From Patescibacteria group bacterium (GTDB taxonomy: Bacteria; Patescibacteriota; Patescibacteriia; UBA9570), in assembly GCA_041660305.1 (NCBI GenBank), contig JBAZWO010000001.1, positions 290,268 through 354,267 of the forward strand: a DNA stretch of 64,000 nucleotides. Reading direction: 5' to 3'. The notes under the pieces were generated by a model. It did no database searches. It saw only the letters and a program-made list of their open reading frames with translations, and was not told where the DNA came from. Of the stretch, positions 11,810-62,019 are shown piece by piece (position 1 is the stretch's first letter; every line of letters begins with the position of its first letter). The position numbers and the translations under genes are program-made.

Positions 11810-11888
11810 TCCCCTCTCCTGTCCGCCAGAGGCGGATCCACCTTTGGTGGAATAGAAGAGGGGTGCCCGAAAGGGCGGGGTGAGGTAG
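11810..11888. repeat. GC-rich modular palindromic element, locus R1
   Basis: An outer stem CCCCTCT/AGAGGGG encloses hairpins CCGCC-AGA-GGCGG and CCACC-TTT-GGTGG. These are followed by GCCC-GAAA-GGGC and the family terminus GGGGTGAGGTAG. It lies between the pyk stop and the ppsA start. Confidence 0.8.
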
Positions 11889-11952
11889 TTCGGCTTATTA
11901 TAACCTAGCTACTTGCTTTGACAAGCTAAATTATCATAACTAATAAAACACC

Positions 11953-13377
11953 TTATATTTCTTGCAATTTTACCATGTTGGCGCCATGAGTTTTGCCTAC
12001 CGGGTGCCCGGTTACCAATACTAATTTATCACCAGGGCTGACTAATTTACGTTGTTTCATTATTTTTACTGATTGTTGCAATAATTTATCTAATGTTCTA
12101 CAAGTAGGCACTAAATAAGCTTCCACACCCCAACTCAACGTTAGTTGTTGTTGTGTTAAACGATGATTGGTTAACACGGCAATTAGTTTTTCTGGACGAT
12201 GCCGAGCAATTAACCGCGCCGCTTGGCCAGACAACGAATTAACCACAATGGCTTTAACGCCGGCGTGTTGCGCTAAATCATACGCAATTACCGAAATGGC
12301 ATCGGCAATAGCTGGTTGCACTAATTTTAAATAATGAGCCGGCACATCATCGTATTTTGAAGCCTCGGTTTCCTTAATAATACTGGTCATGGTTTTTACG
12401 GCTTCTACTGGATATTTGCCAAAGGCTGATTCAGCCGATAACATCACAGCATCGGTATGATCGATGACCGCATTAGCCACATCGGAAACTTCGGCTCGCG
12501 TGGCGCGCGGATTAATCGTCATGGATTCTAACATTTGGGTAGCTACAATTACTGGCTTGCCTACTTCTAAACATTGCTGAATCATACTCTTTTGTAGTAA
12601 CGGCACATCCGCTGGATTAATTTCTATGCCTAAATCACCCCGCGCTACCATAATACCATCGGTAACTTTTAAAATGTGCTTAAAATTCTTCACCGCTTCA
12701 GCCCGTTCAATTTTAGCTACTATTTGCACCGGGTGTTTACCTAATAATTTACGCAATTCCAAAATATCAGCCGAATCTTTTACAAATGATAAAGCCACAA
12801 AATCAATGCCTTGTTTTAAACCAAAGGCTAAATCTTGCTTATCTTTAGCAGTAATTACATCGGTAATAATATTTGTACTAGGTAAATTTATACCTTTATG
12901 TGAAAAAATTATTCCCGGGCGCACCACACTGCCGAAAATCATTTTATCTTTAACTTGCTCAATCATGATATCGATTAAACCATCGTTGATTAATACATGT
13001 TTACCAACACTGGCAAATTTATATAATTCCGGGTAATCAATGGGAATAATTTTATCGTTACCGGTAGTAAGTAATTTGTAATTAATTAAATTATTAGGCA
13101 CTAACACTACCGATTCTTTGCGCACTAATTCAATACCATCACGGTGTACACTGCCTACTCTAATACGTGGCCCTTGTAAATCCTGCATTAATCCCACGAT
13201 TTTACCAACTTTGGCTGCCGCTAACCGAATATTTTTAATTAACACCGCGTGTTCAGCATACGTGCCATGCGAAAAATTTAAACGCGCTACATTCATGCCG
13301 TGCTTAATCATTTGCTCCAACACCGCCGGTTTAGACGACGCCGGCCCTAATGTACACACTATTTTGGTTCGTTTCAT
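11953..13377 (-). CDS. pyk: Pyruvate kinase
   Basis: 474 aa, starting MKRTKIVCTLGPAS, with full-length PK barrel and C-terminal domain pattern. Confidence 0.92.
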   Translation of the reverse strand: MKRTKIVCTLGPASSKPAVLEQMIKHGMNVARLNFSHGTYAEHAVLIKNIRLAAAKVGKIVGLMQDLQGPRIRVGSVHRDGIELVRKESVVLVPNNLINYKLLTTGNDKIIPIDYPELYKFASVGKHVLINDGLIDIMIEQVKDKMIFGSVVRPGIIFSHKGINLPSTNIITDVITAKDKQDLAFGLKQGIDFVALSFVKDSADILELRKLLGKHPVQIVAKIERAEAVKNFKHILKVTDGIMVARGDLGIEINPADVPLLQKSMIQQCLEVGKPVIVATQMLESMTINPRATRAEVSDVANAVIDHTDAVMLSAESAFGKYPVEAVKTMTSIIKETEASKYDDVPAHYLKLVQPAIADAISVIAYDLAQHAGVKAIVVNSLSGQAARLIARHRPEKLIAVLTNHRLTQQQLTLSWGVEAYLVPTCRTLDKLLQQSVKIMKQRKLVSPGDKLVLVTGHPVGKTHGANMVKLQEI

Positions 13378-13410
13378 AAATCTTATAGTAACACAAAAAA
13401 TGCTTCTATT

Positions 13411-13495
13411 CTACCTCTATCCCCAACCCTTTCCCCTAAACTTCCTACCTCGCCCTGTCCTTCGGACATCCCTCTCCTATTAGGAGAGGGAGAGG
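13411..13495. repeat. GC-rich modular palindromic element, locus R2
   Basis: It starts CTACCTCTATCCCCAACCCTTTCCCCTAAAC. It contains TGTCC-TTCG-GACA and the imperfect stem CCCTCTCCTA/TAGGAGAGGG (near-contiguous arms, at most ~2 unpaired central nt). It lies between the efp stop and the pyk start. Confidence 0.8.
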
Positions 13496-13500
13496 CAATT

Positions 13501-14064: not shown

Positions 14065-14095
14065 AATTTTTTAAATAAATAATTTATTTAACTCC

Positions 14096-14318
14096 CTACC
14101 TCACCTCCCGGCCTCCTCTCCTTAAAACTACCTTCCTCCCTAACCCTCCTTCCTCAAAGGCAGGAGGGAATAATTTCTTTAATTATCATTTCTTATCCCC
14201 CTCTCTCCTTAGAGGAGAGAGGGGGTTGGGGGGAGTGAGGTAGGTTGTTTAGGGGAGAGGGGGTTAGGCCATCGGCTCTGAGGCTCTGGCTCGAAGAGGG
14301 GAGAGGTAGTCTACCTCC
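14096..14318. repeat. GC-rich modular palindromic element, composite locus R3 (inverted partner of R4)
   Basis: It starts CTACCTCACCTCCC and ends GAGAGGTAG/CTACCTCC. About 170 bp match the reverse complement of 15677-15857. The rpsR stop codon (14311-14313) lies at its edge. Confidence 0.85.
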
Positions 14319-14532
14319 TAGTATACTGCAACAAGGCCATATAACGCGCGCGTTTAATGGCTTGGCTAAGTTTGCGCTGAATTTTGGCACTGACACCGAT
14401 ACGTTTAGCTGGTAAAATTTTGGCGTAATTAGAAATCACTTTACGTAACAAGACAATATTTTTGTAATCAATATTAGTTTCATCAACAATTAATTTTTCA
14501 CGCACTGGTTTATGAGAATGATTCATGGACAT
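14311..14532 (-). CDS. rpsR: 30S ribosomal protein S18
   Basis: 73 aa with the S18 pattern IDYKNIVLLRKVISNYAKILPAKRIGVSAKIQRKLSQAIKRARYMALL. Confidence 0.9.
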   Translation of the reverse strand: MSMNHSHKPVREKLIVDETNIDYKNIVLLRKVISNYAKILPAKRIGVSAKIQRKLSQAIKRARYMALLQYTRR

Positions 14533-14556
14533 AAAAAAACAAATAAATAATTTTTA

Positions 14557-15000: not shown

Positions 15001-15019
15001 AAAAATAAGTAATTAGTAA

Positions 15020-15676: not shown

Positions 15677-15857
15677 CTACCTCTATCCCCAACCCTTTCC
15701 CCTAAACAACCTACCTCACTCCCCCAACCCCCTCTCTCCTCTAAGGAGAGAGGGGTATAAGAAATGATAATTAAAGAAATTATTCCCTCCTGCCTTTGAG
15801 GAAGGAGGGTTAGGGAAGAAGGTAGTTTTAAGGAGAGGGGGCTAGGGGGTGAGGTAG
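15677..15857. repeat. GC-rich modular palindromic element, composite locus R4 (inverted partner of R3)
   Basis: It starts CTACCTCTATCCCC and ends GGGGGTGAGGTAG. It is the reverse complement of most of R3, including the AT-rich core aataatttctttaattatcatttcttat. Confidence 0.85.
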
Positions 15858-18212: not shown

Positions 18213-18244
18213 TTCCCCCTTTAGGGGGTTAGGGGGCTGGGGCC
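18213..18244. repeat. GC-rich palindromic element fragment, locus R5 (gatC tail / gatA leader)
   Basis: Contains the CCCCC-TTTA-GGGGG hairpin (18215-18228) plus TTAGGGGGCTGGGGCC. The gatC stop (18221-18223) sits in the hairpin loop. Confidence 0.7.
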
Positions 18245-18523
18245 AAATACTCCTTTAACTTTTAAATGATCTTCCGCTGTTTCAATGGCCGATTTAAACA
18301 TTTGTTCTCTAGTAAACTGATAATCAATAACATCCGGCCTGGTTTTATTGGCTAGGCCGGTAATTTGATACGTGGGCGTAACTTGGCTAGTATCCACCTG
18401 ATTTAATTGTTCCACAAATTTTAAAATAGTAGCAAATTCACCTTGAAAATGCTTAATTTCCGCTTCAGTTAGGTTAATTCTAGATAGTTTAGCAATTTTT
18501 TCCACTTCGGCTTTAGATAACAT
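18221..18523 (-). CDS. gatC: Glutamyl-tRNA(Gln) amidotransferase subunit C
   Basis: 100 aa with a GatC-like sequence. The last residues (GPSPLTP) are encoded by repeat R5. Confidence 0.85.
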   Translation of the reverse strand: MLSKAEVEKIAKLSRINLTEAEIKHFQGEFATILKFVEQLNQVDTSQVTPTYQITGLANKTRPDVIDYQFTREQMFKSAIETAEDHLKVKGVFGPSPLTP

Positions 18524-18535: not shown

Positions 18536-18655
18536 GTATATTTTAACAAATATTGAAACTCACCTACTGCTTGCACATTTTATGTTAACTTGTTAAACTG
18601 GCGCGGTTATAAAAACCGCTCTTTGAAAAAAATTATGCATCCGGTAATTAAATTT

Positions 18656-18740
18656 GACCCTTCCCCCTACCCCCTTCCCTGCAAGGCAGGGGGTTTAACT
18701 CCATCCCTCTTGGCAGGAGGGAGGGCTGGGGTGGGAGGTC
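18656..18740. repeat. GC-rich palindromic element, locus R6 (inverted partner of R7)
   Basis: 85 bp, GACCCTTCCCCCTACCCCC...GGGGTGGGAGGTC. It differs at only 2 positions from the reverse complement of 21109-21193. Confidence 0.9.
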
Positions 18741-18859
18741 GAATCTATTTCTCGGGTGCATAATGGAAGATGCACAAGACTTAACTTGTTTAAGCTTCGT
18801 TCACAATTGGGTTGAATGAAGCAAAAATAAGTTGAGCAACAAACTTCCTAGAAAGGATT

Positions 18860-20700
18860 ATCGTAAAAGCCCAGCGGTTGCTGGTGCTTGGTCACAATAA
18901 CAATAATGTAATTGTGACCCGGTATGTTGTCAGCCAACTGTTCGAACCGCCGTGAGAAACCAATGACACAAAATAGTGTGTCTTGATTCGCTCGCGGCAA
19001 CTTGGGAGAAAGCAAAATGCAACTGAAACGTCTTTGGGGTTTAATACCCCTGAGTCTGTTGATGGTTGGTGTACAGGAGTGTCCGACCACGACAACGCCG
19101 CCGGAGTATGAGCGCACTATCATCAACTATGACCATGTCGCACTCAACTTTGATCCGAGTGGCACAATCACGGTCGATGCAGACGTGACCGTGGCGGATG
19201 GTGATCAGGGTGTGGCAGTCGATGTTGGGGACTTTGTTCCAACCTACTCCACAACAACATTCCACCAGGACGGTGCATATGAAATCTACGACGTACCGAC
19301 CGGTGGTGAGCAGACATTCCACTTATCCGGCAACACGACCTTGCAAAATTCGTGGCAGGGAGTCTCCTACATGGTTCACCCCGACTACGGATATTCAAGT
19401 GTACAATCGATCATCTGGCCGTACAACGGTGTCAACGTCGGTCCCTACCAGAACGACTCATTCTCGCGCCCTGATGGTATGGTGAAGTTCACATGGGGGG
19501 GAATCTACGGACTTGAAAACATGTTCGGTGGTCAGACACCCATCATCCTGCGAGGTGACACGGAAGGACCTGGTGGATCTGCCTACACGGCATTCGCATT
19601 GGCAGCAAGTCCTGACTACGACCTTTACGAAGTAGGGACGTCAAACGGAGGGGTTCTTCTCCGTTCGTACTATTTCAAATCTGATCCAGAACAGCCAGGA
19701 AAAGTCGCCTATTTGAACCGATACACACTATCTATGATGAACTGGCTCGAGAAAAACTTCGGACCCTATCCTCAAACCAAGTACACGAGCGCATCAGTTC
19801 TGCTCGGAACCGGCGGTGGTATGGAAGGTCCAGTCGTCATGTATGACAATCTCAACAGTGGCGACGCTTCCTGGTACGGCGGTGACCATGAACCGCCGCA
19901 CGCCTTCATCGGGACCAGTGTTAGAACAGGAGACCCTATCTACCAAGCCTTCAATGAGGGTACGGTAGTGAGTCTACAGACCGCTCATCTGAACGAAGAC
20001 GGTAGCCCAGCAGATTTCAAAACCGTCACTGACTTCCTCTGTGATATGATTCCCTACGCTGCTACGTATGAAAGGAACTTTGTGCCTTGGCCGGCAGGAC
20101 AGGAAGGAATGTATGCTCTGGATGAGATGACACGAGGAAGTACGTACTACAAAACTGGATTTATCTCGTGGATGCTCCAGGAAGAGCGCGGATACTCCGG
20201 CTACGTGAAAGGTGTGGACTTGTTTATTCAGCGACATCGAGACAATACCTTTACGGATGAGGAATTCATTCGCGACATGACCGATGGGTACGAAGGTGCT
20301 GTCAGCTATGACGAAATCTACACCAGATATGCTGAATTGCAAAACCCTAATTCTGTGTACCCTGCGGGCTACGAAACCTACTGTCCAGACGCCGCAAAAA
20401 CGTGGAAAACCCGCGACGAAAACTACTGGAAGATGCATGGCATCACATATCGTCTTCATCCGGGCATGCCGGCCTGGGGCGAGTACGTGAACTAAAACCA
20501 TCCTCCCCTTTTTTTTGAGAAGCACCCGGCGCTGACCTGAAAGCGCCGTGATCGGAGGATCTTCGCTTCTCCCTACCCAACAGGCCGCTCACCTGATCTC
20601 CCCGCCTTTCCCACCGAAAGCCGCGCGACGATAAAATGAGCAAATTCCTAGTGTTCATCTCTGCTACGCTAAAGCTACGCAGAAGGTGGGTAGTAGATAA
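18860..20700. other. Compositional island 1 (GC-rich relative to flanks)
   Basis: The line starting at 19081 has 34/60 G+C, against 17-19/60 in typical host lines. Boundaries are approximate. Confidence 0.7.
19017..20495 (+). CDS. Secreted M1-family (gluzincin) zinc metallopeptidase
   Basis: HEPPH followed exactly 18 residues later by E (FNEG) gives the HExxH-X18-E gluzincin motif. The upstream GGGMEG resembles the GxMEN exopeptidase motif. There is an N-terminal signal (MQLKRLWGLIPLSLLMVGVQEC). The ATG at 19017 is preferred over the track's TTG at 19002 because GGGAGA lies 7 nt upstream. Confidence 0.75.
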   Translation: MQLKRLWGLIPLSLLMVGVQECPTTTTPPEYERTIINYDHVALNFDPSGTITVDADVTVADGDQGVAVDVGDFVPTYSTTTFHQDGAYEIYDVPTGGEQTFHLSGNTTLQNSWQGVSYMVHPDYGYSSVQSIIWPYNGVNVGPYQNDSFSRPDGMVKFTWGGIYGLENMFGGQTPIILRGDTEGPGGSAYTAFALAASPDYDLYEVGTSNGGVLLRSYYFKSDPEQPGKVAYLNRYTLSMMNWLEKNFGPYPQTKYTSASVLLGTGGGMEGPVVMYDNLNSGDASWYGGDHEPPHAFIGTSVRTGDPIYQAFNEGTVVSLQTAHLNEDGSPADFKTVTDFLCDMIPYAATYERNFVPWPAGQEGMYALDEMTRGSTYYKTGFISWMLQEERGYSGYVKGVDLFIQRHRDNTFTDEEFIRDMTDGYEGAVSYDEIYTRYAELQNPNSVYPAGYETYCPDAAKTWKTRDENYWKMHGITYRLHPGMPAWGEYVN

Positions 20701-20725: not shown

Positions 20726-21100
20726 TTATATTGATAACGTATCCAAAATGATTTTTAGTACACTATCAATATTTTTTAATATCTTATCATTACTAAATCG
20801 CAGAATATTACAGCCATATAATTGTAATACAAAATCACGCCCTTGATCTCGTTGCTGTTGATAGTTATGAATCTCACCATCAACTTCAATGACTAATTTC
20901 TTTTCGTGACAATAAAAATCAACAATAGAAGAATACAAAGGATATTGCCTACGAAATTTATATCCTAACATTTTACTACGCTGCAAATAATACCATAATT
21001 TCTCTTCTGCTTGAGTAGGATTATGACGTAAACTCTTAGCAAGATAATGCAGTTTATTTTGCAAAGTAATATCTCGAGATTGTTTGGATTGTGTTAACAT
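20726..21100 (-). CDS. DUF559 / Vsr-like endonuclease-domain protein
   Basis: Contains LWYYLQRSKMLGYKFRRQYPLYSSIVDFYCHEKKLVIEVDGEIH...ILRF, typical of DUF559. The ORF-track N-terminus MAGGRAGEGGQTH is read-through into repeat R7, so the ATG at 21100-21098 is preferred. Composition is host-like and AT-rich. Confidence 0.75.
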   Translation of the reverse strand: MLTQSKQSRDITLQNKLHYLAKSLRHNPTQAEEKLWYYLQRSKMLGYKFRRQYPLYSSIVDFYCHEKKLVIEVDGEIHNYQQQRDQGRDFVLQLYGCNILRFSNDKILKNIDSVLKIILDTLSI

Positions 21101-21108
21101 GTGCGTTT

Positions 21109-21193
21109 GACCTCCCTCCCCAGCCCTCCCTCCTGCCAAGAGGGAGGGAGTTAAACCCCCTGCCTTGCAGGGAAGGGGGTAGGGGGAAGGGTC
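21109..21193. repeat. GC-rich palindromic element, locus R7 (inverted partner of R6)
   Basis: 85 bp, GACCTCCCTCCCCAGCC...GGGGGAAGGGTC. The ligA TGA stop (21192-21194) overlaps its last bases. Confidence 0.9.
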
Positions 21194-23180
21194 ATTTTAT
21201 TAATTTTAGGAATTCCTGTTCAGATAAAATTTTCACTCCTAATTTTTTCGCTGTATTATATTTCGAGCCCGGCTCTTCTCCGGCTACTACATAATCGGTG
21301 CTTTTGCTCACGCTACTGGAAATTTTGCCGCCGGCTTGGCGGATTTTAGCTTTGGCTTCGTCCCGCAACATGGTTTTTAGAGTGCCGGTTAGCACAAAAG
21401 TTTTGCCGGTTATCTTATTGGTAGAGACAGATTGCAATCTGTCTCTACCAATTACGGATTGCACCTGAACATATTTCAATAATTCATCTAATTGAGCTTG
21501 CTGTTTTTTATTATGAAAATAATCATAAACACTTTTGGCTACTATTGGACCAATTTCTGGAATAGCTTGTAATTGTTCCAAATTATTATTACGTAATGCG
21601 GTGATGGTGGTAAATTGATTTGCTAACAAAATAGCGGTTTCTTCACCTACATGGCGAATACCTAAGGCATATAACAAACGAGGCAATGATACGTTTCGAG
21701 CTTGTTGAATTTCTTGCACCAAATTAGCGGCCGATTTATCGGCAAACCGATCTAGCGGCTCTAATACTACTTTGGTTAATTTAAAAATATCAGCAAAATT
21801 ATTCACTAACCCGGCTTGCATTAATTGATCGATTATTTTCGGTCCTAAACCTTCAATATCCAAGCCTTTTTTAGACACAAAATGATATAAGCGCTCTTGT
21901 TCCTGGGCAAAACACGCTGGATTAGTACAGTAATACGCTACTTCACCGGTTTTACGCGTTACTGCCGCGCCACAAACCGGACATTTATTTGGAAACATGT
22001 ATGGCTTACTATGTTTTGGTCGTAATGCCGGCAACACCTGCACTACATCGGGAATAATATCACCGGCTTTTTCTATAATTACCGTATCGCCTATTCGAAC
22101 ATCTAGCCGCTTGATTTCATCTTCATTATGCAATGTAGCCCGAGATACTGTAGAGCCAGCTACGGTAACCGGTCGTAAATGCGCTACCGGTGTTAACGCG
22201 CCAGTGCGCCCTACTTGCACTTGAATGTCTGCTACAATAGTAGTGGTTTGTTGTGCCGGGAATTTGTATGCCACTGCTCCGCGTGGCGCTTTACCTACCA
22301 CGCCTAATTGTTTAAAAATATTAATATTATCCACATTTATCACCATACCGTCTATCCAATAGGGTAATTTTTCTCTTATTTTCATTAATTGTTCGTAATG
22401 TTTTTGTACAGCGGCTAAATTATTACAACGTAAATTATTAGCATTAGACGGAAAACCTAATGTTTGTAAATATTCGTGCACCGCGGAATGATTTAAAATG
22501 GCCAAATTGGTTGCGCAATCATAGGCCATAAAGCTCAATTTCCTAGCCGCTACTACTTTAGGATCCAGCTGGCGAATACTGCCGGCGGCTACGTTTCTTG
22601 GGTTAGCGAATTTTTGTTCCGCTGTTTTATTAATCAGCTCAAATTGCTGTTTGGTCATGTACACTTCTCCTCTTACTTCTATGTGTTCTGGGTAATCCCC
22701 TTGCAACTGTAACGGTATTGCCTCAATGGTTTTTAAATTTTCGGTAACATCTTCACCAATTTTACCATCGCCCCGGGTGGAACCACGAACAAATTTACCT
22801 TGTTTATATTCTAACGCTACCGCTAAACCGTCCATTTTTATTTCTGTGTAATAAGCTAATGGCTCGTTAGTAAGCTTGGTTAAACGCTGTTCCCAAGCTT
22901 GTAATTCTGCAAAAGAAAAAATGTCGTTCAATGATAGCATTTTTACCGCGTGTGTTACTTTGGAAAAATTAGCCAATGGCAAACCACCAACTCGCTGACT
23001 GGGTGAATCCGGTGTAATTAAATCTGGATATTGATTTTCTAACTGTGTTAATTCATGTTTTAAAGAATCCAGCGCCGCTTCCGAAATTTCTTGTTTATCT
23101 AATACATGATAAAGATAACGATAATGCTCTATTTCTTTACACAGCTGTTTTAGACGAGTTTTAGCTTGGGATTTGGTCAT
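21192..23180 (-). CDS. ligA: NAD-dependent DNA ligase
   Basis: 662 aa with the adenylation motif EIKMDGLAV, a Zn finger CPVCG...CTNPAC, HhH repeats and a C-terminal BRCT domain (GKTFVLTGTL). Confidence 0.93.
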   Translation of the reverse strand: MTKSQAKTRLKQLCKEIEHYRYLYHVLDKQEISEAALDSLKHELTQLENQYPDLITPDSPSQRVGGLPLANFSKVTHAVKMLSLNDIFSFAELQAWEQRLTKLTNEPLAYYTEIKMDGLAVALEYKQGKFVRGSTRGDGKIGEDVTENLKTIEAIPLQLQGDYPEHIEVRGEVYMTKQQFELINKTAEQKFANPRNVAAGSIRQLDPKVVAARKLSFMAYDCATNLAILNHSAVHEYLQTLGFPSNANNLRCNNLAAVQKHYEQLMKIREKLPYWIDGMVINVDNINIFKQLGVVGKAPRGAVAYKFPAQQTTTIVADIQVQVGRTGALTPVAHLRPVTVAGSTVSRATLHNEDEIKRLDVRIGDTVIIEKAGDIIPDVVQVLPALRPKHSKPYMFPNKCPVCGAAVTRKTGEVAYYCTNPACFAQEQERLYHFVSKKGLDIEGLGPKIIDQLMQAGLVNNFADIFKLTKVVLEPLDRFADKSAANLVQEIQQARNVSLPRLLYALGIRHVGEETAILLANQFTTITALRNNNLEQLQAIPEIGPIVAKSVYDYFHNKKQQAQLDELLKYVQVQSVIGRDRLQSVSTNKITGKTFVLTGTLKTMLRDEAKAKIRQAGGKISSSVSKSTDYVVAGEEPGSKYNTAKKLGVKILSEQEFLKLIK
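21418..21451. repeat. 34-bp perfect palindrome inside ligA (GTAGAGAC family)
   Basis: TTGGTAGAGACAGATTG|CAATCTGTCTCTACCAA. It encodes IGRDRLQSVSTN in the linker before the BRCT domain. Confidence 0.85.
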
Positions 23181-23205: not shown

Positions 23206-23279
23206 TCCCCCTCTCCTCAGAGGAGAGGGGGTTAGGGGGTGAGGTAGGATGTTTAGGGGAGGTAAAGAGGGAGAGGTAG
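23206..23279. repeat. GC-rich modular palindromic element, locus R8
   Basis: Contains CCCCCTCTCC-TCAGA-GGAGAGGGGG, then TTAGGGGGTGAGGTAG and GAGAGGTAG. It lies between the ligA start and the stop of the last pilin gene. Confidence 0.8.
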
Positions 23280-27449: not shown

Positions 27450-28124
27450 TTAATTTAATTTTAATATCCGCTTAGTCACAACTGGTATTTCTTTTTGAAA
27501 ATATTTTTTTACTTGCGCCCAGGTAGTATCAAAAAATATTTCAGGCATTGGATCAATTTCCGCATCTGCAAAATACATTAAACTTTTCATAATATGATGA
27601 TAATCATGTGCCACCGTAGGATATTGCCTTGCTACACGTAAAATAATATCAAACAGGGATTCACAATGATGTAAATACCAATACAAATCAAAAAAATCAC
27701 GTTTTTTACCACGTTGGCTAATAGCTATTATTTTCATTACCGCAATATCACGCTTATCCACTATTGCCACATTACCAAAGTACAAAACTGGTTGCTCTGG
27801 AATAAAAAATGGATAGGCAATAAAACTAATTTTAGCATTATATAAACGTCCGTACACCGTTCCTTCTTCATTTACATCAGTATGCCAGATAGTTCCAGGA
27901 AAGTGTTTTAATAACACCGTTGTACGAAAATCTTTTTTTGGTAGAAAAAAATCAAGATCAAGTGATAAACGATGACCTACTTGTAATGTTAAGGCTGTGC
28001 CACCAGCTAAATACCAATCAGTGCCTTTTAACCAAGACTGGTTTGATAAATACTCCAAAGCCAGTCTGGTGTTTTTTGGAATATTATTAAGATGCCAGAT
28101 TATGTTTTGCTTAGTGCTAGCCAT
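27450..28124 (-). CDS. Nucleotidyltransferase AbiEii/AbiGii-family toxin (type IV TA)
   Basis: 224 aa with the hallmark LAGGTALTLQVGHRLSLDLDFF. Confidence 0.8.
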   Translation of the reverse strand: MASTKQNIIWHLNNIPKNTRLALEYLSNQSWLKGTDWYLAGGTALTLQVGHRLSLDLDFFLPKKDFRTTVLLKHFPGTIWHTDVNEEGTVYGRLYNAKISFIAYPFFIPEQPVLYFGNVAIVDKRDIAVMKIIAISQRGKKRDFFDLYWYLHHCESLFDIILRVARQYPTVAHDYHHIMKSLMYFADAEIDPMPEIFFDTTWAQVKKYFQKEIPVVTKRILKLN

Positions 28125-42759: not shown

Positions 42760-42807
42760 CTACCTCTATCACCCCAGCCCCCTTTCCCCTAAACAGGGGA
42801 AAGGGGG
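42760..42807. repeat. GC-rich modular palindromic element, locus R9
   Basis: CTACCTCTATCACCCCAG then the imperfect hairpin CCCCCTTTCCCC-TAAA-CAGGGGAAAGGGGG (arms unequal by one base, so the stem has one unpaired/mismatched position). It sits at the right edge of island 2. Confidence 0.8.
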
Positions 42808-50905: not shown

Positions 50906-51067
50906 CTACCTCACCTCCCGGCCTCCTCTCCTCTACCTTCCATCCCCGACCCTTCCCTCCTATAAAGAGGGAAGGGAGAATTACGAAATTATTCCCTCCT
51001 GCCTTAGAGGAAGGAGGGTTAGGGAGGAAGGTAGTTTTAAGGAGAAGGGGGCTAGGGGGAGAGGTAG
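50906..51067. repeat. GC-rich modular palindromic element, composite locus R10
   Basis: The 5' end matches the 5' end of R3 (CTACCTCACCTCCCGGCCTCCTCTCCT). The 3' half matches the 3' half of R4 (ATTATTCCCTCCTGCCTT.GAGGAAGGAGGGTTAGGGA...GAGGTAG). Confidence 0.85.
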
Positions 51068-52448: not shown

Positions 52449-52487
52449 ACGTAGAGACGCATTGCAAGGCGTCTCTACGTTTTTTTT
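52449..52487 (+). terminator. Intrinsic terminator after tRNA-Arg (member of the GTAGAGAC palindrome family)
   Basis: ACGTAGAGACGC-ATTGCAAG-GCGTCTCTACGT followed by T8. Confidence 0.8.
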
Positions 52488-54391: not shown

Positions 54392-56502
54392 TGCTGACCG
54401 GCCTGCACGGCGTTGGCACGGCTATACAACAAAAACTGCGCCGGTTAGCTATTACTACTTTAACCGATTTGTTATATCACTTTCCGGCTCATTACGAGGA
54501 TTTTTCAAATATCACCGCTATTACTGCTTGCGCAACGGATCAAGCCGTTACCATATTAGGCACAATAAAAAAAATTAGCACACGGCGTAGCTGGAAACGG
54601 CGCCGGTTTACCATTACCGAAGCTACCATTACAGATGCTAGTGGTGACATGAGGGTAATTTGGTTTAATCAAGCATATATTGCCGAACAACTACCGGCCA
54701 ACACTTTGGTTTATTTATCCGGAAAAATAACCCTTTACCAAAAAAAATTAGTGCTTAATAACCCTGTTTATGAACTATACAAAACCGAAACGGTTCATAC
54801 GGCCAGAATTGTACCGCGTTACGCGTTAACTACCGGTTTAACCCATAAACAACTACGCTATTTTATAAAACAAGCCCTACAAATACAAACTACTAATTAC
54901 TCCATTATTAAAGACTGGCTACCAGCTAATATATTAGATCAATATCAATTACTGCCCATTACTCAAGCTCTGCAAGCCATTCATTTTCCAAATAGCTGGG
55001 CAGAATTAGAGCAAGCCAAATATCGTTTAGGGTTTGATGAATTATTATTAGTACTGTTATTTGTACAAGCTACGCGCGCTAGTTTAGCTAAAGAAACGGC
55101 TCCTAGTATCCCGTTTGCCAAAACGCCTACTAAAACATTAGTGGATCGGCTCCCTTTTCAGCTCACGAATGATCAACGCGTAGCTGCTTGGGATATTATT
55201 AAAGACTTACAGCACACTACGCCCATGAACCGCTTACTAGAAGGCGATGTGGGCTCTGGTAAAACCGTAGTGGCCGCGTTGGCTATGTACAACGTAGCCC
55301 TAGCTTGTTATCAAGCCGTGCTTATGGCGCCTACTGAATTATTAGCCGAACAGCATTATCACACGATTAAACAATTATTTAGCCATACTAATATTAACGT
55401 GGGCTTGTGGACGCGTAGTAAAAAGATTGCTGCCTCGTTTCCAAGCGTCCTACCTCACCCCCCAACCCCCTCTCCTCTGAGGAGAGGGGGAGAATTTCTC
55501 CCTTCTCCTTTGAGGAGAAGGGCTGGGGATGAGGTAGGTAGCGGCGAGATTATTATTGGCACCCAAGCTTTGATTCAAAAAAATGTTCATTTTCCAAAAT
55601 TGGCGTTGGTGGTGGTGGATGAACAACACCGTTTTGGTGTTACCCAACGACAACAGCTAAAACAAGTAGCGACGCCCCGCGGGGCGTCTCTACTGACCCC
55701 TCATTTATTATCCATGACCGCTACGCCGATTCCCCGATCACTCGCCTTAACTATTTACGGTGATTTAGATTTATCATTATTAGCCCAGCTCCCAAAAAAC
55801 CGTAAACCTATTATTACTAAATTGTTTTCCACTGAACAACGTTTAGTTTTACAAAAAATTATTACTGAACACTTAGCTAATCAAGCGCAAATTTATGTAG
55901 TAGTACCAAGAATTGAAGAAAAAGATGACGGCGCTCGTTCTGTACAGACTGAGTATAAACACTGGCAAAAATTATTTCCAAATTATCGAATAGCTTATTT
56001 ACACGGCCAATTGCCAACCGAAGAAAAACAAGCGGTTATGGAGCAATTCCGCGCTGGAAAAATTGCGGTGTTAATAACTACCACGGTAATTGAAGTAGGG
56101 GTAGACGTACCTAATGCTACCGTAATGATTATAGAAGGGGCTGAACACTTTGGTCTAGCGCAGCTACATCAATTACGCGGTCGCGTGGGACGCTCACACC
56201 AACAATCCTATTGCTATGTTTGTACTGACGTGGCGTATCCCATAAAACGTTTGCAATATTTTGTAAAAAATCATAATGGGTTTGCCTTAGCAGACTACGA
56301 TTTAAAACTGCGCGGCCCCGGCGCTGTCTACGGCGCCATCCAATCCGGCTACTTCAACCAATTTAAAATAGCTACCTTAAGTAACACCAAACAACTCCAA
56401 CAAGTTAAAGCCGCTGCCGCCACACTTTACCCAAACATTAAACGCTACCCCGCTTTACACGCCAAACTGCAACACATGATAAAGCGGGTGCATTTAGAGT
56501 GA
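54388..56502 (+). CDS. recG: ATP-dependent DNA helicase RecG (carrying two palindromic-element insertions)
   Basis: 704 aa with a wedge domain, motif I GDVGSGKT, DEQHRFGV, TATPIPRSLA and QLRGRVGR. The reading frame is intact across the repeat at 55450-55537. Confidence 0.9.
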   Translation: MMLTGLHGVGTAIQQKLRRLAITTLTDLLYHFPAHYEDFSNITAITACATDQAVTILGTIKKISTRRSWKRRRFTITEATITDASGDMRVIWFNQAYIAEQLPANTLVYLSGKITLYQKKLVLNNPVYELYKTETVHTARIVPRYALTTGLTHKQLRYFIKQALQIQTTNYSIIKDWLPANILDQYQLLPITQALQAIHFPNSWAELEQAKYRLGFDELLLVLLFVQATRASLAKETAPSIPFAKTPTKTLVDRLPFQLTNDQRVAAWDIIKDLQHTTPMNRLLEGDVGSGKTVVAALAMYNVALACYQAVLMAPTELLAEQHYHTIKQLFSHTNINVGLWTRSKKIAASFPSVLPHPPTPSPLRRGGEFLPSPLRRRAGDEVGSGEIIIGTQALIQKNVHFPKLALVVVDEQHRFGVTQRQQLKQVATPRGASLLTPHLLSMTATPIPRSLALTIYGDLDLSLLAQLPKNRKPIITKLFSTEQRLVLQKIITEHLANQAQIYVVVPRIEEKDDGARSVQTEYKHWQKLFPNYRIAYLHGQLPTEEKQAVMEQFRAGKIAVLITTTVIEVGVDVPNATVMIIEGAEHFGLAQLHQLRGRVGRSHQQSYCYVCTDVAYPIKRLQYFVKNHNGFALADYDLKLRGPGAVYGAIQSGYFNQFKIATLSNTKQLQQVKAAAATLYPNIKRYPALHAKLQHMIKRVHLE
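55450..55537. repeat. GC-rich modular palindromic element, locus R11, inside the recG ORF
   Basis: CTACCTCACCCCCC...GGGGATGAGGTAG with hairpins CCCCCTCTCC-TCTGA-GGAGAGGGGG and CCCTTCTCC-TTTGA-GGAGAAGGG. It is translated as LPHPPTPSPLRRGGEFLPSPLRRRAGDEVG. Confidence 0.85.
55666..55693. repeat. GTAGAGAC-family palindrome inside recG
   Basis: GTAGCGACGCCCC|GCGGGGCGTCTCTAC, with one stem mismatch. It encodes VATPRGASLL between helicase motifs II and III. Confidence 0.75.
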
Positions 56503-57876
56503 TCACGTACAATCATCCGCTGAATTAGCTGTATTATAATCAGAACAATATGGTTCTGTATAAAGTTTGTTTTCATCAGGTATGCCACGTGAAAAACCGC
56601 AACCTTGATCGGCATTTTTACAACCTAATTCTTCATATTTATCATATCCATTAGGACATTTATCCACCGTACTATTTGTTGTGCATGTTGCAAAAGTAGT
56701 ATCTCTATTAGCAGAATTTAAACAATAATAATTAGCCGACACTCTTTCAGGCATATCGCTCCTTTTATAAGCCGGATTTAATAGAACACATTTATTCATT
56801 TTATTTGTGGCACCAACATAATTATCGCCACATCGTTGTAAATAATTAAAATGCCACCATTCTCCGGAATCACGAACAAATTTTCCACCAGATAATTGCT
56901 CCATAATTTTTTTCAACATATCCTGATTAGCTTTTAAATCTTCTTTATCAGGATTACCACTTCCTCCCGGACCGCCATTATTATACATAGCCGCTCTATA
57001 GTCTTTAGATGAAAAACCAGCTGAAGGAGCACCTTCTAACCATAAATCCAGAGCTACTCCTGATTCATGTTTACTAGTGCATACAGCGCTGGCTGGATTG
57101 CATGTTCTACAATCAGTAGTACAACAACCAACGCCAGCCGTACAACCTTCGGCTTTTGCCTTAAGATAACAGTCGCGCAGCTTAACTTGACTTTCATGTG
57201 ACCGATAAGCACTACCAACACCAATTTTACAAGTAGGACACAACGCTGCCTGTCCATAACCTGCACCGTTACGCATAGCATCAGTAATTTCTTCTAACCC
57301 ATCAGCGACTGATTTACATGCTTGTAATCCATTACCAATTAATCCTGCCGTATTTGGTATAGTTACAATAGGAGTTGGTACTGGTGTATCACAATAAGCA
57401 TCTTCTGATTTTGGAACAATCTTTAACACCGCTAACTTCATGTTCACAAAATTAGGATTAATCAAATATAAGATACTGTAGGAAAATAAGGCTAAGACTA
57501 AACCAATCACAGCGGAAGTAATGAGTTCTTTGCCTTGAGTAATGCTTTGCTCATTACCAGCGGAAGTTAACCACATTACTCCACCGGCCATAATTAACAC
57601 CGTAGCAATAATGCCTACTAAGCCTAAAGCGTAACGATAAACCAAGTTAATATATTGGCCTAAATTAGTTATGGTAGTTTGGGTACCTAGTGGTTGTTCT
57701 AGGGTGTATGGTTCCACTAAACCACCAATGTATTCTTCATCAACGGATTGCTTTGGATCTGATCCATCTGACGCTAGCACTAAACTAGGCAACAAACAAA
57801 ACCAACATAGCACAATTAATAATAATTTAGTTTGTTTTAAAAATTTATAATAAAAATTACTTACTAATAACAGCAT
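56503..57876 (-). CDS. Fusion: T4SS-pilin-like two-TM N-module plus Cys-rich M15 (VanY-like) peptidoglycan peptidase
   Basis: 457 aa. The N-module (residues 67-153) is shared with the 58624-60057 gene. LAS/M15 motifs present are GSAYRSHESQ, SKHESGVALDL and EWWHFNY. There are more than 25 Cys. Confidence 0.7.
   Translation of the reverse strand: MLLLVSNFYYKFLKQTKLLLIVLCWFCLLPSLVLASDGSDPKQSVDEEYIGGLVEPYTLEQPLGTQTTITNLGQYINLVYRYALGLVGIIATVLIMAGGVMWLTSAGNEQSITQGKELITSAVIGLVLALFSYSILYLINPNFVNMKLAVLKIVPKSEDAYCDTPVPTPIVTIPNTAGLIGNGLQACKSVADGLEEITDAMRNGAGYGQAALCPTCKIGVGSAYRSHESQVKLRDCYLKAKAEGCTAGVGCCTTDCRTCNPASAVCTSKHESGVALDLWLEGAPSAGFSSKDYRAAMYNNGGPGGSGNPDKEDLKANQDMLKKIMEQLSGGKFVRDSGEWWHFNYLQRCGDNYVGATNKMNKCVLLNPAYKRSDMPERVSANYYCLNSANRDTTFATCTTNSTVDKCPNGYDKYEELGCKNADQGCGFSRGIPDENKLYTEPYCSDYNTANSADDCT
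57418..57678. repeat. 261-bp near-identical module, copy A
   Basis: It differs from 59644-59904 at 2 positions by eye (57421 C/T and 57493 T/C). Both differences are synonymous. Confidence 0.9.
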
Positions 57877-58579: not shown

Positions 58580-58623
58580 ATAAGTACTATTATAGTATTA
58601 TTCTATATTAAGATCAAACTTTG

Positions 58624-60057
58624 CTACATGGCATCTTTACATTTAGGTTTACTAGTATACAAATTACTAACACCGCCATAATTCTTGACGCTGGAAAAAT
58701 CCCAAAATGGTATATCGTCTGCACTGGGAGTATCATACATACAAGGCCCTGTGTCTTTAAACATTAGAGTAAAATCAGCTACTGTGGGACACACAATATT
58801 AGAACCACCACAAATAGCGTAACTATAAACTGTATCTTTATCAGCGGTACCCATATCAGCCTCATCTGTCTCAGCTTCGCTAGTACAATATCCATTAATA
58901 GCCACTTCTATAGCACCCTCCGCCGTATTTACCGGTCTACATAGTTGATTATCCTGACAAATATCATCACGCATTTTCAAAAATTGATCGCCGCTTAATT
59001 TTGGATTTTCACTATGACAACGCTCCGGATAATCTGCTGGACAATAATAAGAGGCTACTCCAGCACCACAATTAATACTAGATTTCCAGATATTCCAACC
59101 ACAATGATAAGCTCCTAATATAGTTCTTGAATCAGTTGAATTTAATCCTTTACTAAAATCAGCAAATATTTTTACACCAGCACACACGCCTACTTCTGGA
59201 TTCGTAGCCATAAAATTACAAATACTTTGCCAGTCTGTTCCATTAGACTGGTTATAAGCTAAGCCTGCTTTATCGGCGCATACTGCAATAATTTGATTAT
59301 TGTCTGAAATATTTTGTTCTTTTCTGGAATTCCATAAATATCCAGGTAATGTACCCATCAAACCACAGGCATTGGATTTTGGATCGGGATTATGTGCATT
59401 AATACAATAACCACTTTCATGTTTAACAATAGCTTTCATCATAGTTAAACTAAGCCCTGAATTAAACGCCTTCACATATTTAGTAATCCACTTATTTAAG
59501 TCTGTACTACTATAACTAGTTTTCGCACCACTAGGTAATGGTATAGTACTACCTCCTGAACAAGTTTTTAAACCAGTTTTTTCAATTAACGGCTTATCAT
59601 TCACACAAGCATTATCTGGATTAGCTAATTCAGCTGGAACAGGAATTTTTAACACCGCTAACTTCATGTTCACAAAATTAGGATTAATCAAATATAAGAT
59701 ACTGTAGGAAAATAAGGCCAAGACTAAACCAATCACAGCGGAAGTAATGAGTTCTTTGCCTTGAGTAATGCTTTGCTCATTACCAGCGGAAGTTAACCAC
59801 ATTACTCCACCGGCCATAATTAACACCGTAGCAATAATGCCTACTAAGCCTAAAGCGTAACGATAAACCAAGTTAATATATTGGCCTAAATTAGTTATGG
59901 TAGTGATGGAACTAAGGGGTTGTTCTAGGGTATAGTTGATATCAGTAACATATTGATCCTCCGTTTGGTCAGAATCTGCCGCTTGTCCTACAAAACCAAA
60001 ACTAAGCCCAGCTAATATCACAAAAACTATTAAAAACTTACGCAACAAAAACTTCAT
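58624..60057 (-). CDS. Fusion: T4SS-pilin-like two-TM N-module plus Cys-rich lytic transglycosylase (SLT/VirB1-like)
   Basis: 477 aa. SLT motifs present are IVKHESGY (catalytic Glu-Ser) and ACGLMG. The N-module is identical in protein sequence to the paralogue. Confidence 0.7.
   Translation of the reverse strand: MKFLLRKFLIVFVILAGLSFGFVGQAADSDQTEDQYVTDINYTLEQPLSSITTITNLGQYINLVYRYALGLVGIIATVLIMAGGVMWLTSAGNEQSITQGKELITSAVIGLVLALFSYSILYLINPNFVNMKLAVLKIPVPAELANPDNACVNDKPLIEKTGLKTCSGGSTIPLPSGAKTSYSSTDLNKWITKYVKAFNSGLSLTMMKAIVKHESGYCINAHNPDPKSNACGLMGTLPGYLWNSRKEQNISDNNQIIAVCADKAGLAYNQSNGTDWQSICNFMATNPEVGVCAGVKIFADFSKGLNSTDSRTILGAYHCGWNIWKSSINCGAGVASYYCPADYPERCHSENPKLSGDQFLKMRDDICQDNQLCRPVNTAEGAIEVAINGYCTSEAETDEADMGTADKDTVYSYAICGGSNIVCPTVADFTLMFKDTGPCMYDTPSADDIPFWDFSSVKNYGGVSNLYTSKPKCKDAM
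59644..59904. repeat. 261-bp near-identical module, copy B
   Basis: See copy A. The offset is 2226 bp. Confidence 0.9.
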
Positions 60058-60064
60058 GTGGAAC

Positions 60065-61348
60065 TTATTTAAGATTAATTTTCCTTAATTGCTTAGTAAC
60101 AGCTTCTTGATAGTAAAGTGTTTTTTCATTGGCATCCACCAGCACATTATTAATACCGTTCAAACTAGTGCCTTTAACATTATCGGCTGGTATAGCGATT
60201 TTTTCTGTAGTGCCAGCGGCTAAATTAATCCGATAAATTTCGTGCGGTACGGTATCTAGTTTTTCTGGAGCAATGGCTGCGCCAGTTGGTTGTTGGGTAG
60301 GCACGGCACAATACAAGGTTGTGCCGGAACTATTATAAGCACATTTATCCACTGTGGTATTTAAGCCTAGGGTTGTTTTACTTGTTCCCACGGTATCGCC
60401 CTCTACTTTAGCAACACCGAGCGTATAATTATAATTAGTGGCCGTGGAATAAGTGGCATACAGCATAGTATCACCGCTTGGTGACCATTTTGTTTGCAAA
60501 CCACGACCATTTACTACGAAGGCTTTATAGTTTTCACCTTTTAAACCAACTGGAATTACTTTCTGATTAATATTATCCACATATTCTTGAAACGTGCCTA
60601 TCATTTTACCAGATGGAGACCAGTCCACAATTACTTTATCGGCATTATCACCCAATGGCTCAATGCCTTGCACTTGGCTACCGTCTGGATTAGAAACTCC
60701 TAACCAACGATCATTGGTATTGGCCACCATATATTTAAAACCAATTTGCGTATCGTTAGCGGAAAAATCCACCTCTTGAATATCTTTATTTAACGTATAT
60801 TGTTTTTTATTGGTAAAATCATACATTAATTTGTTGCCATCTTCAAATTGTAGCACCGCTTTATTATTATCATTCGACCAAGCCACCTCATTTACCCCTT
60901 TAAACACCTGTTCACTAATAGGAATTACGTTGCCATTAGCATCTACTCGGTAAAATTTACCATCCGCCGCGTTATAAAACGATACTAGCCCGGTATTGTT
61001 CAGTGTTGGAGACTGTGTTTCACCATTATAAACCACCGCGGACAAAGTTTCTTTACCACGCGCTACCGCATCAATAATCGGTAAACCGCCGTTCACATTA
61101 TTAGTATTTATTAAAACTGGATTATTATCTAAGTTTATATCCGGTAATTGCCCGTTACTAACCACCGCCGTGTTATCATTGGTGGTACTGGTTTGAAAAA
61201 TCGGCTTAAAAAATATAAAATAAATCAACCAACCAATAAAAACCGCCCCAATTAATAATACACTAACTAATAAAATCCGTTGTTGTACATAACTTAATTG
61301 TTGATACCAGCGTCTTATTTTATCTAACTGCTGCCTTAACCAAAACAT
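60065..61348 (-). CDS. Membrane-anchored beta-propeller protein (TolB/PD40-like repeats)
   Basis: 427 aa with an N-terminal TM helix and repeated WSPSG/WSNDN blade motifs. Confidence 0.55.
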   Translation of the reverse strand: MFWLRQQLDKIRRWYQQLSYVQQRILLVSVLLIGAVFIGWLIYFIFFKPIFQTSTTNDNTAVVSNGQLPDINLDNNPVLINTNNVNGGLPIIDAVARGKETLSAVVYNGETQSPTLNNTGLVSFYNAADGKFYRVDANGNVIPISEQVFKGVNEVAWSNDNNKAVLQFEDGNKLMYDFTNKKQYTLNKDIQEVDFSANDTQIGFKYMVANTNDRWLGVSNPDGSQVQGIEPLGDNADKVIVDWSPSGKMIGTFQEYVDNINQKVIPVGLKGENYKAFVVNGRGLQTKWSPSGDTMLYATYSTATNYNYTLGVAKVEGDTVGTSKTTLGLNTTVDKCAYNSSGTTLYCAVPTQQPTGAAIAPEKLDTVPHEIYRINLAAGTTEKIAIPADNVKGTSLNGINNVLVDANEKTLYYQEAVTKQLRKINLK

Positions 61349-61354
61349 AGAAAA

Positions 61355-61960
61355 TTATTTATTATTTAACCATTTAAATGTATCCACTTGCCAGGTTTGA
61401 TTGGTTTTCTTTAACTGTAAGCGAGCCGTTTGAGAAAATTGTTTAGTAGCACCAGCTATAGTTTCTACTCTACGCGTGCTTACTTCTACTGTAGCCCCCG
61501 TAGCCGCTTCGTCATAATCCACTAACTCTATATTTACCGCCGTGGTAATAACAGTATAAGCACTATTACTATTAGCTGTATTAGTGGAATTATTAATATT
61601 ATTAGCCACTACGCTTTTCATGTTTTCCGTCATGAACGCTTGCAAACTAATAATATTTTCCTGGCCGGTAGTGGTGGAAAAAGAACCGTACCGCTCGGTA
61701 AAAAAGCGCGCCGTGTTATAAATGCTCGTTTTATTATCTAGCGGTACATTAGTAACTGTATTAGCTGTATTAGTAGTAGTTGTATTGCTATTGTTAACCG
61801 CATTATTCGTAACTGAATTATTAGCGTTAATTACTGCCGGGTTATTATTACTATTAGTATTAGTAGTTGGCTGGCGTTTAATTACCACTAACAACACAAT
61901 AATACCAATTAATAAAATTCCAGCTATTGTACTTAATATAATTAATGTTTTTTTGTTCAT
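61355..61960 (-). CDS. Membrane-anchored protein, Asn/Thr-rich linker plus small C-terminal domain (VirB8-like candidate)
   Basis: 201 aa with a TM helix, a low-complexity N/T stretch and a roughly 120-aa C-terminal domain. Size and topology fit NTF2-like VirB8 proteins. This is a weak call. Confidence 0.35.
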   Translation of the reverse strand: MNKKTLIILSTIAGILLIGIIVLLVVIKRQPTTNTNSNNNPAVINANNSVTNNAVNNSNTTTTNTANTVTNVPLDNKTSIYNTARFFTERYGSFSTTTGQENIISLQAFMTENMKSVVANNINNSTNTANSNSAYTVITTAVNIELVDYDEAATGATVEVSTRRVETIAGATKQFSQTARLQLKKTNQTWQVDTFKWLNNK

Positions 61961-61975
61961 ATTGATTGATTTATT

Positions 61976-62019
61976 TCTCCCCCTCTCCAGAAAGGAGAGG
62001 GGGCTGGGGGGTGAGGTCG
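61976..62019. repeat. GC-rich modular palindromic element, locus R12
   Basis: CCCCCTCTCC-AGAAA-GGAGAGGGGG then CTGGGGGGTGAGGTCG. It lies between the VirB4 stop and the next gene start. Confidence 0.8.

Follow-up and report, generated by a model that had tools for sequence, protein, structure and literature searches.

In this study, we analysed a 64,000-nt window of a Patescibacteria (Candidate Phyla Radiation, CPR) contig (JBAZWO010000001.1, positions 290,268 to 354,267), in which 12 short GC-rich palindromic blocks are scattered over a gene-dense sequence. On balance, we favour the reading that these blocks are copies, without an open reading frame (ORF), of a selfish palindromic family which has relatives bearing a DUF559 (Vsr-like PD-(D/E)XK) endonuclease gene across phyla, and that a DUF559 nuclease is their partner in trans. 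First, the blocks form a repeat family with a hairpin grammar, they are present or absent at orthologous sites, and the family inserts in frame into genes. Second, the core of the family is identical across phyla, and its modules are statistically associated with the flanks of DUF559 genes. We infer that DUF559 would be the mobilising enzyme, and likewise how it may act.

All 12 blocks reported in the initial annotation were found in place (Table 1), with 49–69% G+C. The background of 28–32% G+C given there was too low, as the window mean is 38.8% and 1-kb windows range from 32 to 45% except at two foreign islands, although the contrast with the blocks is still real. The termini that it described, CTACCTC and GAGGTAG, were observed 21 times against 3.26 expected, a count reached in 0 of 100 shuffles, and 17 of the 21 sites lie inside the listed blocks; the remaining four (16390, 17032, 37641 and 59549) correspond to the chance expectation. 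Its stem-loop vocabulary was also borne out by a repeat finder, which returned 12 copies of a 28-nt C-arm/loop/G-arm hairpin module (family D2) and nine of a G-rich tail (family D3) in the window. Each unit consists of a pyrimidine head (CTACCTCACCCC, or the variant GACCTCC), 2–4 nt (YAR) and a hairpin of 8–13 bp with a C/T-rich 5′ arm and a G/A-rich 3′ arm, and the mirror unit terminates in GGGGGTGAGGTAG. The head core is ACCTCACCCC and its variants, and two units in inverted orientation make a doublet. The strict 21-mer GAGGGGGYTRGGGGGTGAGGT was found four times exactly and once with two mismatches, where none was expected. Single-strand folding compared with shuffles gave the z-scores in Table 1, and the weak values of copies 18213, 18655, 21106 and 61976 (−0.1 to −2.7) are accompanied by G/C-rich shuffles that fold nearly equally well. 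Target-site duplications, for which the initial annotation had suggested a search, were not visible at the borders of the 12 copies. Its further claim that modules recombine between loci, as in the block at 50906 (R10), is not required by the data: the left part of R3 is the reverse complement of the right part of R4, so R10 needs no recombination between loci.

The repeat family has moved. The copy at 55448-55537 lies in a variable loop of RecG, where it splits the DEAD domain (Pfam). The nearest named relatives of this RecG are Kerfeldbacteria, and its closest homologue (63% identical) has no insert and is 30 amino acids shorter at that point. When orthologous sites were compared, as had been proposed at the outset, the RecG site was empty on the 11.6-kb syntenic contig of that homologue (L204), and so was the 61976 site, where the two genes overlap; L204 nevertheless carries a family member, CTACCTCTCTCCCCCGACCCCTCCCTCC...GGAGGGAGGGG, at its end. 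Contigs from other samples break inside copies, for example contig L001, which starts inside 50906-51067, and a Logan contig, which ends inside 42760-42807, which is how multi-copy repeats usually behave. Assembly chimeras can be dismissed for the RecG copy and for the whole 18.6-21.2 kb arrangement, because both were met again in assemblies made independently from other samples.

These observations also bear on a simpler explanation, in which the blocks are immobile functional hairpins under selection (terminators, mRNA stabilisers or protein-binding sites) or assembly artefacts at low-complexity sequence, and which we hold to be highly improbable. Most copies do lie exactly between genes, and in viral contigs several are placed shortly before a gene start, but both orientations relative to transcription occur (11810 and 13411 differ, and both lie between minus-strand genes), no consistent T-run is found 3′ of the hairpin, there is no Rfam match, sites are empty in relatives, and copies reside in frame in RecG and in leucyl-tRNA synthetase (LeuRS). 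As for artefacts, contigs break at copies and the 42.7-kb junction with an ORF of 72% G+C lacks independent confirmation; against this, the recurrence of the RecG copy and of the 18.6-21.2 kb arrangement has just been described.

The family extends far beyond this genome. Using the core 21-mer for the nucleotide search that the initial annotation had recommended, we scanned one genome per species (596 Gb) and found GAGGGGGYTRGGGGGTGAGGT at no fewer than 120 genome loci from at least 10 phyla, with the matching hairpin in front of it in nearly every case; by our own estimate, chance alone would give about one match at even base composition. Among the matches listed are Anaerolineae and other Chloroflexota; the Cyanobacteria Oscillatoria, Nostoc and Scytonema; Hymenobacter, Cytophagales, Arcicella and Bacteroidota; Planctomycetia (Planctomycetota), Melainabacteria, Gracilibacteria, Zixiibacteriota, Ignavibacteria and several Proteobacteria. 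In these listed matches the left hairpin arm, which is not forced by the search pattern, is present in 109 of 114, and the mate head ACCTCACCCC lies within 300 nt in 64 of 114, giving doublets of 50–300 bp with variable, often AT-rich centres. The stems vary in compensatory fashion (CCCCCTCGCC/GGCGAGGGGG and CCCTCCC/GGGAGGG), and the base after GAGGT varies in other phyla. The proposal of a MITE/REP-like family (miniature inverted-repeat transposable element; repetitive extragenic palindrome) stands as far as multi-copy modular palindromic mini-elements without their own ORF are concerned, but they are not confined to this genome. When all ORFs near the motif were clustered over the 120 loci, no common neighbour family was found, the largest cluster covering 12 loci.

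In viral contigs (IMG/VR, L207-L235), the exact 21-mer was found in 29 stretches, mostly as singlets between genes. Viral contigs are a possible route between phyla, but no DUF559 ORF lies near these 29 stretches. Some of them carry three copies within 2 kb, and several copies are located just upstream of gene starts. At many loci (L025, L114, L045, L026, L118 and L087), the palindrome extends into lineage-specific flanks, and in the window the flanks of R6 (18630-18654 and 18744-18775) contain TTATGCAyCCG on both sides, inverted. Because the flanks at many loci are inverted and not direct repeats, the conserved core looks nested in the middle of a longer palindrome; the alternatives are insertion of the core into hairpin loops and outward growth of the palindromes. 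Two metagenome-assembled genomes (MAGs) contain arrays: in a Bacteroidales MAG (L006, 76-252) near-identical 78-bp units of the module follow one another in tandem, and in L080 (976-1358), from an Anaerolineae MAG, the module recurs at 181-bp spacing. These arrays indicate that the elements can amplify locally besides dispersing.

The architecture has much in common with that of REP elements and their inverted doublets (REPINs), which are associated with the REP-associated tyrosine transposase (RAYT) (PMC3116915, PMC6006769). Shared features are short, GC-rich hairpins whose head is conserved, an occurrence as singlets and as inverted doublets that fold into long hairpins, no target-site duplication, a partner gene flanked by units, and occasional in-frame insertion; the RecG copy shows the doublet fold, an outer stem with two hairpins. 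It can therefore be asked whether the blocks are REP/REPIN elements moved by a single-copy RAYT (HUH-Y1 TnpA_REP) elsewhere in the genome, with a secondary DUF559 association. RAYT subclass 2.4 is found in Cyanobacteria, Bacteroidetes and other phyla, with "double-foot" REPs and in-frame REP insertions (PMC6006769), and the window contains a separate double-foot palindrome family (GTAGAGAC...GTCTCTAC) that resembles a listed RAYT-associated REP. The singlets and doublets match, but the gene between the units here encodes a PD-(D/E)XK DUF559 protein instead of an HUH-Y1 transposase. The outer ends in this genome are CTAC...GTAG, yet GTAG lies 3′ of the hairpin, 12-14 nt off, and is not conserved in other phyla; the head ACCTCACCCC is spaced from the stem by YAR, whereas the REP head is a 5′ GT[AG]G adjoining the stem. 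The 9-mers CCTCACCCC, GGGGTGAGG, CCCCTCTCC and GGAGAGGGG are absent from the table of RAYT-flanking REPs in the available, possibly partial copy (PMC6006769). A motif scan of 1.37 Mb of fetched loci gave a single HUH-like ORF, and Pfam gave none for the 40 ORFs scanned in the window. A REP family is as a rule confined to one lineage, whereas the core here is common to many phyla, and in-frame intragenic copies are frequent here. The RAYT alternative is weakened by these differences, and we regard it as rather improbable.

A gene that does lie between matching modules in the window encodes DUF559 (Table 1), which is also the one gene found there systematically at other loci. Its start is 6 nt from R7, GGAGGT is found 9 nt before the ATG, and the protein matches PF04480 (E = 3e-34), has 3HRL as its closest solved structure (E = 1e-18) and keeps all invariant residues of the family in the alignment. 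The statement in the initial annotation that no transposase lies in the window holds for classical transposases, none of which was found among 40 window ORFs scanned against Pfam (all longest ORFs included), but the DUF559 ORF between R6 and R7 had been overlooked. A second DUF559 protein (P0123), 55% identical and ending in ...TPPSP, is encoded elsewhere on the same 491-kb contig. A tblastn search with the window protein against the 120 foreign loci gave two matches, L008 and L086. In L008 the ORF is placed exactly between modules, ACCTCACCCCCGG-CCCCTCTCC...[ORF]...CCCCCTCTCC-tgtg-GAGAGGGGGCTGGGGGGTGAGGT, and L086 is analogous. On a CPR contig (L236), modules of a variant type surround a DUF559 ORF, with a doublet upstream and a singlet downstream.

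The association was then quantified from the side of the nuclease, using 15 diverse DUF559 proteins trimmed to the catalytic core and 80 metagenome loci fetched by the core pattern alone. An inverted repeat with a local score of at least 40 between the 260 nt left and right of the core was found at 33 of the 77 loci with enough flank; of 49 control flanks taken 400 nt further out, none reached this score, and shuffles never exceeded 33. Across the 80 loci, CCTCACCCC/GGGGTGAGG were present on both sides in 28 and on at least one side in 51. The repeats flanking DUF559 follow the same grammar, with heads ACCTCACCCC, GACCTCCCCCC and ACCCCAACCCC and stems such as CCCCTAAAGGGG and CCCCTTCTCC, which is the vocabulary of the initial annotation. 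The ORF-bearing elements are about 420-625 bp long, and many DUF559 proteins in databases end in module-encoded tails such as ...KPHP (= AAACCTCACCCC) and ...PSPQGEG. The family as a whole comprises 22,056 clusters at 50% identity (E ≤ 1e-3). In some matches there are two or three DUF559 stretches per protein, or a stretch deep inside a protein of 400-1,214 amino acids, which points to more tandem or nested insertions than the ones examined here. In the literature, DUF559 is placed in one group with Vsr and the homing endonuclease I-Bth0305I (PMC3424549). DUF559 genes are enriched 14-fold among predicted targets of programmed inversion, i.e. between inverted repeats (PMC9881135), and in Caulobacter a DUF559 protein damages DNA in vivo, with an SOS response when the cognate methylation is missing (PMC12907096); the latter two results fit a partnership of DUF559 with the modules.

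DUF559-bearing elements also reside in frame in host genes. In the LeuRS gene of L008 the reading frame continues through the entire 460-bp element, which lies immediately ahead of the editing domain, and 21 of the 80 DUF559 cores sit in long open frames read through within host ORFs. Pfam analysis of ten read-through loci revealed seven internal cases (LeuRS three times, MetH, a TsaD/TsaB-family protein, PriA and the acetyl-CoA synthetase Acs) and three N-terminal fusions (GlgB, HisF and a SufS-like protein). Most read-through cases with printed neighbours are bracketed by module-encoded peptides such as PPxPSxxGxG. No intron or intein was found: the host ORFs run straight through, and Pfam shows host domains and DUF559 only. 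Source names such as "leucyl-tRNA synthetase", "cyclase" and "primosomal protein N'" for some DUF559 proteins are explained by this in-frame residence. When 120 close relatives of the L008 LeuRS were compared, with identities of up to 96%, 115 were empty at this site and four had a longer segment there; the two of these four that were inspected (P0420 and P0427) contain a minimal head-hairpin-head element, e.g. NLTPNPSPVERGPGGEV. In more distant genes DUF559 occupies the same site, as seen by Pfam in L124, L130 and L141 and by eye in L146, L171, L172 and L195. A recurrent site together with empty alleles is the pattern of a homing-type element. Three candidates in this context were rejected. 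P0187, which carries the JGI name "leucyl-tRNA synthetase", is actually free-standing among pilin genes; the split of LeuRS lengths into 927 and about 980 amino acids comes from an unrelated variable insertion elsewhere in the protein and not from a second mini-element; and selection for hairpins of purine/pyrimidine tracts that are stop-free in all frames is contradicted by 2.14 open frames versus 2.37 in shuffles, and also because the heads contain TGA and the A-bearing linkers (CTA, TTA) give TAG.

The LeuRS pattern leads to the strongest competitor, in which the repeats are an independent REP/REPIN-like family spread by another agent or by host replication and repair, and DUF559 homes into doublet centres using the modules as homology arms, so that the copies in the window would be empty targets. 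A nuclease alone suffices for homing, not for transposition. Copies without the ORF vastly outnumber those bearing it and hold no DUF559 remnants, DUF559 always lies at the centre of the palindrome, the minimal hairpin and the full element occupy one LeuRS position, and a genuine homing endonuclease is among the members of the nuclease family (PMC3424549). However, homing leaves the spread of the repeats themselves unexplained, and no other gene is associated with them; in addition, many DUF559 sites show no sign of a prior repeat in close relatives, as the 115 of 120 fully empty LeuRS sites illustrate. We consider it unlikely on the present evidence. The Vsr-like homing endonuclease genes typified by I-Bth0305I belong to the same Vsr/DUF559 clade (PMC3424549), and the elements resemble them in reoccupying one conserved LeuRS site, in entering other conserved genes and in being patchy among close relatives. 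Unlike homing genes and inteins, they have no splicing domain (Pfam), the whole element stays in the reading frame, and structured terminal inverted repeats are accompanied by abundant ORF-less derivatives at many sites.

For the partnership in trans that we favour, the following scheme can be proposed. DUF559 would nick or cleave the structured ends or the target sites, leaving the subsequent copying or moving of the element to host repair or replication; this reliance on the host is suggested because a PD-(D/E)XK nuclease cannot ligate. The short copies may use the nuclease in trans, or they may remain after deletion of the interior between two near-identical hairpins; a deletion origin has also been suggested for "double-foot" REPs by Quentin et al. 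(PMC6006769). Copies would persist where they are harmless, in intergenic positions or as in-frame inserts in protein surface loops, RecG being the example here.

Several points weigh against this reading. First, a PD-(D/E)XK nuclease alone cannot rejoin DNA, so that the complete chemistry of transposition is missing. Second, 44 of the 77 tested DUF559 loci have no clear flanking repeat, and the ORF is found in only two of roughly 60 motif-bearing doublets among the genome loci listed. Third, no DUF559 remnants were found in 39 long ORF-less doublets, so a deletion origin cannot be taken as the rule. Fourth, the doublet adjacent to DUF559 in the window is of the GACC variant, whereas most copies are of the CTACCTC type; moreover, both arms there are complete doublets, separated by a foreign ORF of 1.5 kb, and the 2.5-kb unit may therefore represent two separate insertions. 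Finally, the data also fit a DUF559 gene that is a parasite homing into pre-existing repeats.

Compared with other known systems, the blocks also have distinctive features. Terminal inverted repeats are present, as in a MITE derived from an insertion sequence, but a target-site duplication is absent from the 12 copies, no transposase parent sharing their ends was found among the ORFs scanned, and DUF559 is the only ORF found between matching ends. Yeast mitochondrial GC clusters and byp elements are likewise short GC-rich hairpins in a genome of lower G+C content, some of them in coding regions. They are, however, organellar and lineage-restricted, byp is bypassed by the ribosome whereas the elements here appear to be translated, and we know of no nuclease encoded within them. 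The Rickettsia palindromic elements (RPEs) are also palindromic mini-elements of about 100-150 bp, which are located between genes and in frame in unrelated housekeeping proteins, where surface loops tolerate them. In contrast, the present family is GC-rich, with purine/pyrimidine-tract hairpins and ORF-bearing members, and its peptides match no NCBIfam or Pfam model, while NCBIfam contains RPE domain models. To our knowledge, RPEs are confined to Rickettsia and have no known partner enzyme, and a review names none (PMC10969869). The blocks thus behave like REP/REPINs and RPEs yet fail defining features of both.

The initial annotation had not recognised the sequence as any described family, and we agree, as there is no match in Rfam 15, Pfam, NCBIfam or the open-access literature searched. 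A gathering-score Rfam scan of the window and 18 foreign loci returned only tRNA and cobalamin riboswitch matches, none of them on the elements, and the window contained no Rfam intron. The elements also remained unmatched when 11.7-23.4 kb was scanned by E-value, the sub-threshold matches being generic microRNA hairpins. Six-frame element peptides and the RecG insert had no match in Pfam or NCBIfam at E up to 10. No description of the element was found in open-access literature on CPR repeats, dispersed repeats, DUF559, COG2852/Vsr-like proteins, LeuRS insertions and RPE-like elements, including a 2024 review of prokaryotic MITEs, and a full-text search of an open-access library for element 11-mers gave only unrelated eukaryotic or viral papers among the matches listed. 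The DUF559 unit may well represent a new class of selfish element. A wider proposal, which we advance tentatively and hold somewhat short of even, is that many DUF559 proteins are the nucleases of an unrecognised class of prokaryotic selfish elements of 0.4-0.6 kb, with hairpin ends, which spread across phyla and into phages, sit in frame in conserved housekeeping proteins without an intron or intein, and leave swarms of REP/RPE-like mini-palindromes like the 12 described here.

Table 1 Blocks, inverted pairs and neighbouring features of the window
Feature	Position	Form or strand	Structure or product	Placement	Fold z
Block	11810-11888	singlet	branched hairpin, then GGGGTGAGGTAG head	between start of gene for phosphoenolpyruvate (PEP)-utilising enzyme (11778) and pyruvate kinase stop (11953)	−4.2
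Block	13411-13495		two CTACCTC heads and CCCTCTCC/GGAGAGGG hairpin	between pyruvate kinase start and EF-P stop	about −4.2/−4.3
R3	14096-14318	compound	head, hairpin A, AT-rich centre, hairpin B, two more heads; 14096-14232 = left arm of inverted pair I1	between EF-P start and rpsR	
R4	15677-15857	compound	inverted copy of R3 compound; 15721-15857 = right arm of I1		
Block	18213-18244	singlet, minimal	CCCCC-TTTA-GGGGG and TTAGGGGGCTGGGG	overlaps 3′ end of gatC (18221-18523, minus strand), beside gatA start	−0.1 (fold alone not significant)
R6	18655-18743	doublet, GACC(C/T) variant	two inner hairpins; left copy of inverted pair I2		
Passenger ORF	19017-20495	plus	492 amino acids, 52% G+C, no Pfam family	between R6 and R7	
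DUF559 ORF	20726-21100	minus	Vsr-like PD-(D/E)XK endonuclease, 124 amino acids	between R6 and R7	
R7	21106-21194	doublet	right copy of I2	between DUF559 start and ligA stop	
28-bp palindrome	21421-21448			in ligA	
Block	23206-23279	singlet	hairpin and two GAGGTAG heads	between ligA start and following gene	
GC-rich ORF	41915-42667	minus	250 amino acids, about 72% G+C, internal repeats; MopE-type metal-binding motif PF11617		
Block	42760-42807	singlet	head CTACCTCTATCACCCCAG and 13-bp hairpin	adjoins 72% G+C ORF 41915-42667	−5.3
R10	50906-51067	compound doublet	modules in common with R3 and R4	after clpB-like stop	
28-bp palindrome	52451-52478		followed by T-run	directly after tRNA-Arg	
Block	55448-55537	doublet, perfect, 90 nt	outer stem and two hairpins; encodes LPHPPTPSPLRRGGEFLPSPLRRRAGDEVG	in frame in RecG	−7.5
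28-bp palindrome	55666-55693		encodes VATPRGASLL	in variable loop of RecG	
Block	61976-62019	singlet	hairpin and GGGGGGTGAGGTCG	between 201-amino-acid ORF and TraG/VirB4-like gene	

Two pairs of blocks form long inverted repeats. The arms of R3 and R4 are 137 nt long and 96% complementary and bracket rpsR-ssb-rpsF, and those of R6 and R7 (89 nt, 97% complementary) enclose 2.36 kb. Besides DUF559, the latter segment contains the ORF 19017-20495, which by eye has a signal-peptide-like N-terminus and a HEPPH (HExxH-type) motif. As the R6-R7 arrangement recurs on an independent 13-kb assembly, this ORF is probably a horizontally acquired passenger. The GC-rich ORF 41915-42667 has, by eye, a signal-peptide-like N-terminus and a hydrophobic basic C-terminus. 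The only other assembly at that place ends inside 42760-42807, so that the junction lacks independent confirmation, and the ORF is either foreign DNA or a chimeric join.

The window contains further repeats. A second, unrelated repeat is the 28-bp palindrome GTAG(A/C)GAC-N12-GTC(T/G)CTAC, with three copies against none expected (Table 1); its design matches that of RAYT-linked "double-foot" REPs, and the near-identical GTAGAGACAGGGCATTGCCCTGTCTCTAC is found in the supplement of PMC6006769. A direct repeat of 291 nt with 97% identity (57418-57708 and 59644-59934) lies between neighbouring minus-strand genes (457 and 477 amino acids), and internal repeats with a period of about 1.2 kb occupy 38439-40353 in the gene for a 1,663-amino-acid Laminin_G_3 protein. 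An AbiEii-type nucleotidyltransferase toxin gene (type IV toxin-antitoxin; 27450-28124, minus strand) is located among type IV pilus/secretion genes.

In conclusion, the element family that has invaded cyanobacteria, Bacteroidota and Chloroflexota has also entered reduced CPR genomes. Metagenome assemblies break at the elements, the long inverted repeats that they form around operons are potential substrates for inversion, and they mislead the transfer of function through DUF559 proteins that bear the names of host enzymes. If the partnership between DUF559 and the modules is true, it would give a function to one of the commoner bacterial domains of unknown function, and it would account for a class of GC-rich repeats and for odd or spurious annotated peptide tails. 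It would also mean that, besides introns and inteins, there is a third route into essential genes, an in-frame nuclease gene with Pro/Ser/Gly-rich flanks encoded by the modules.

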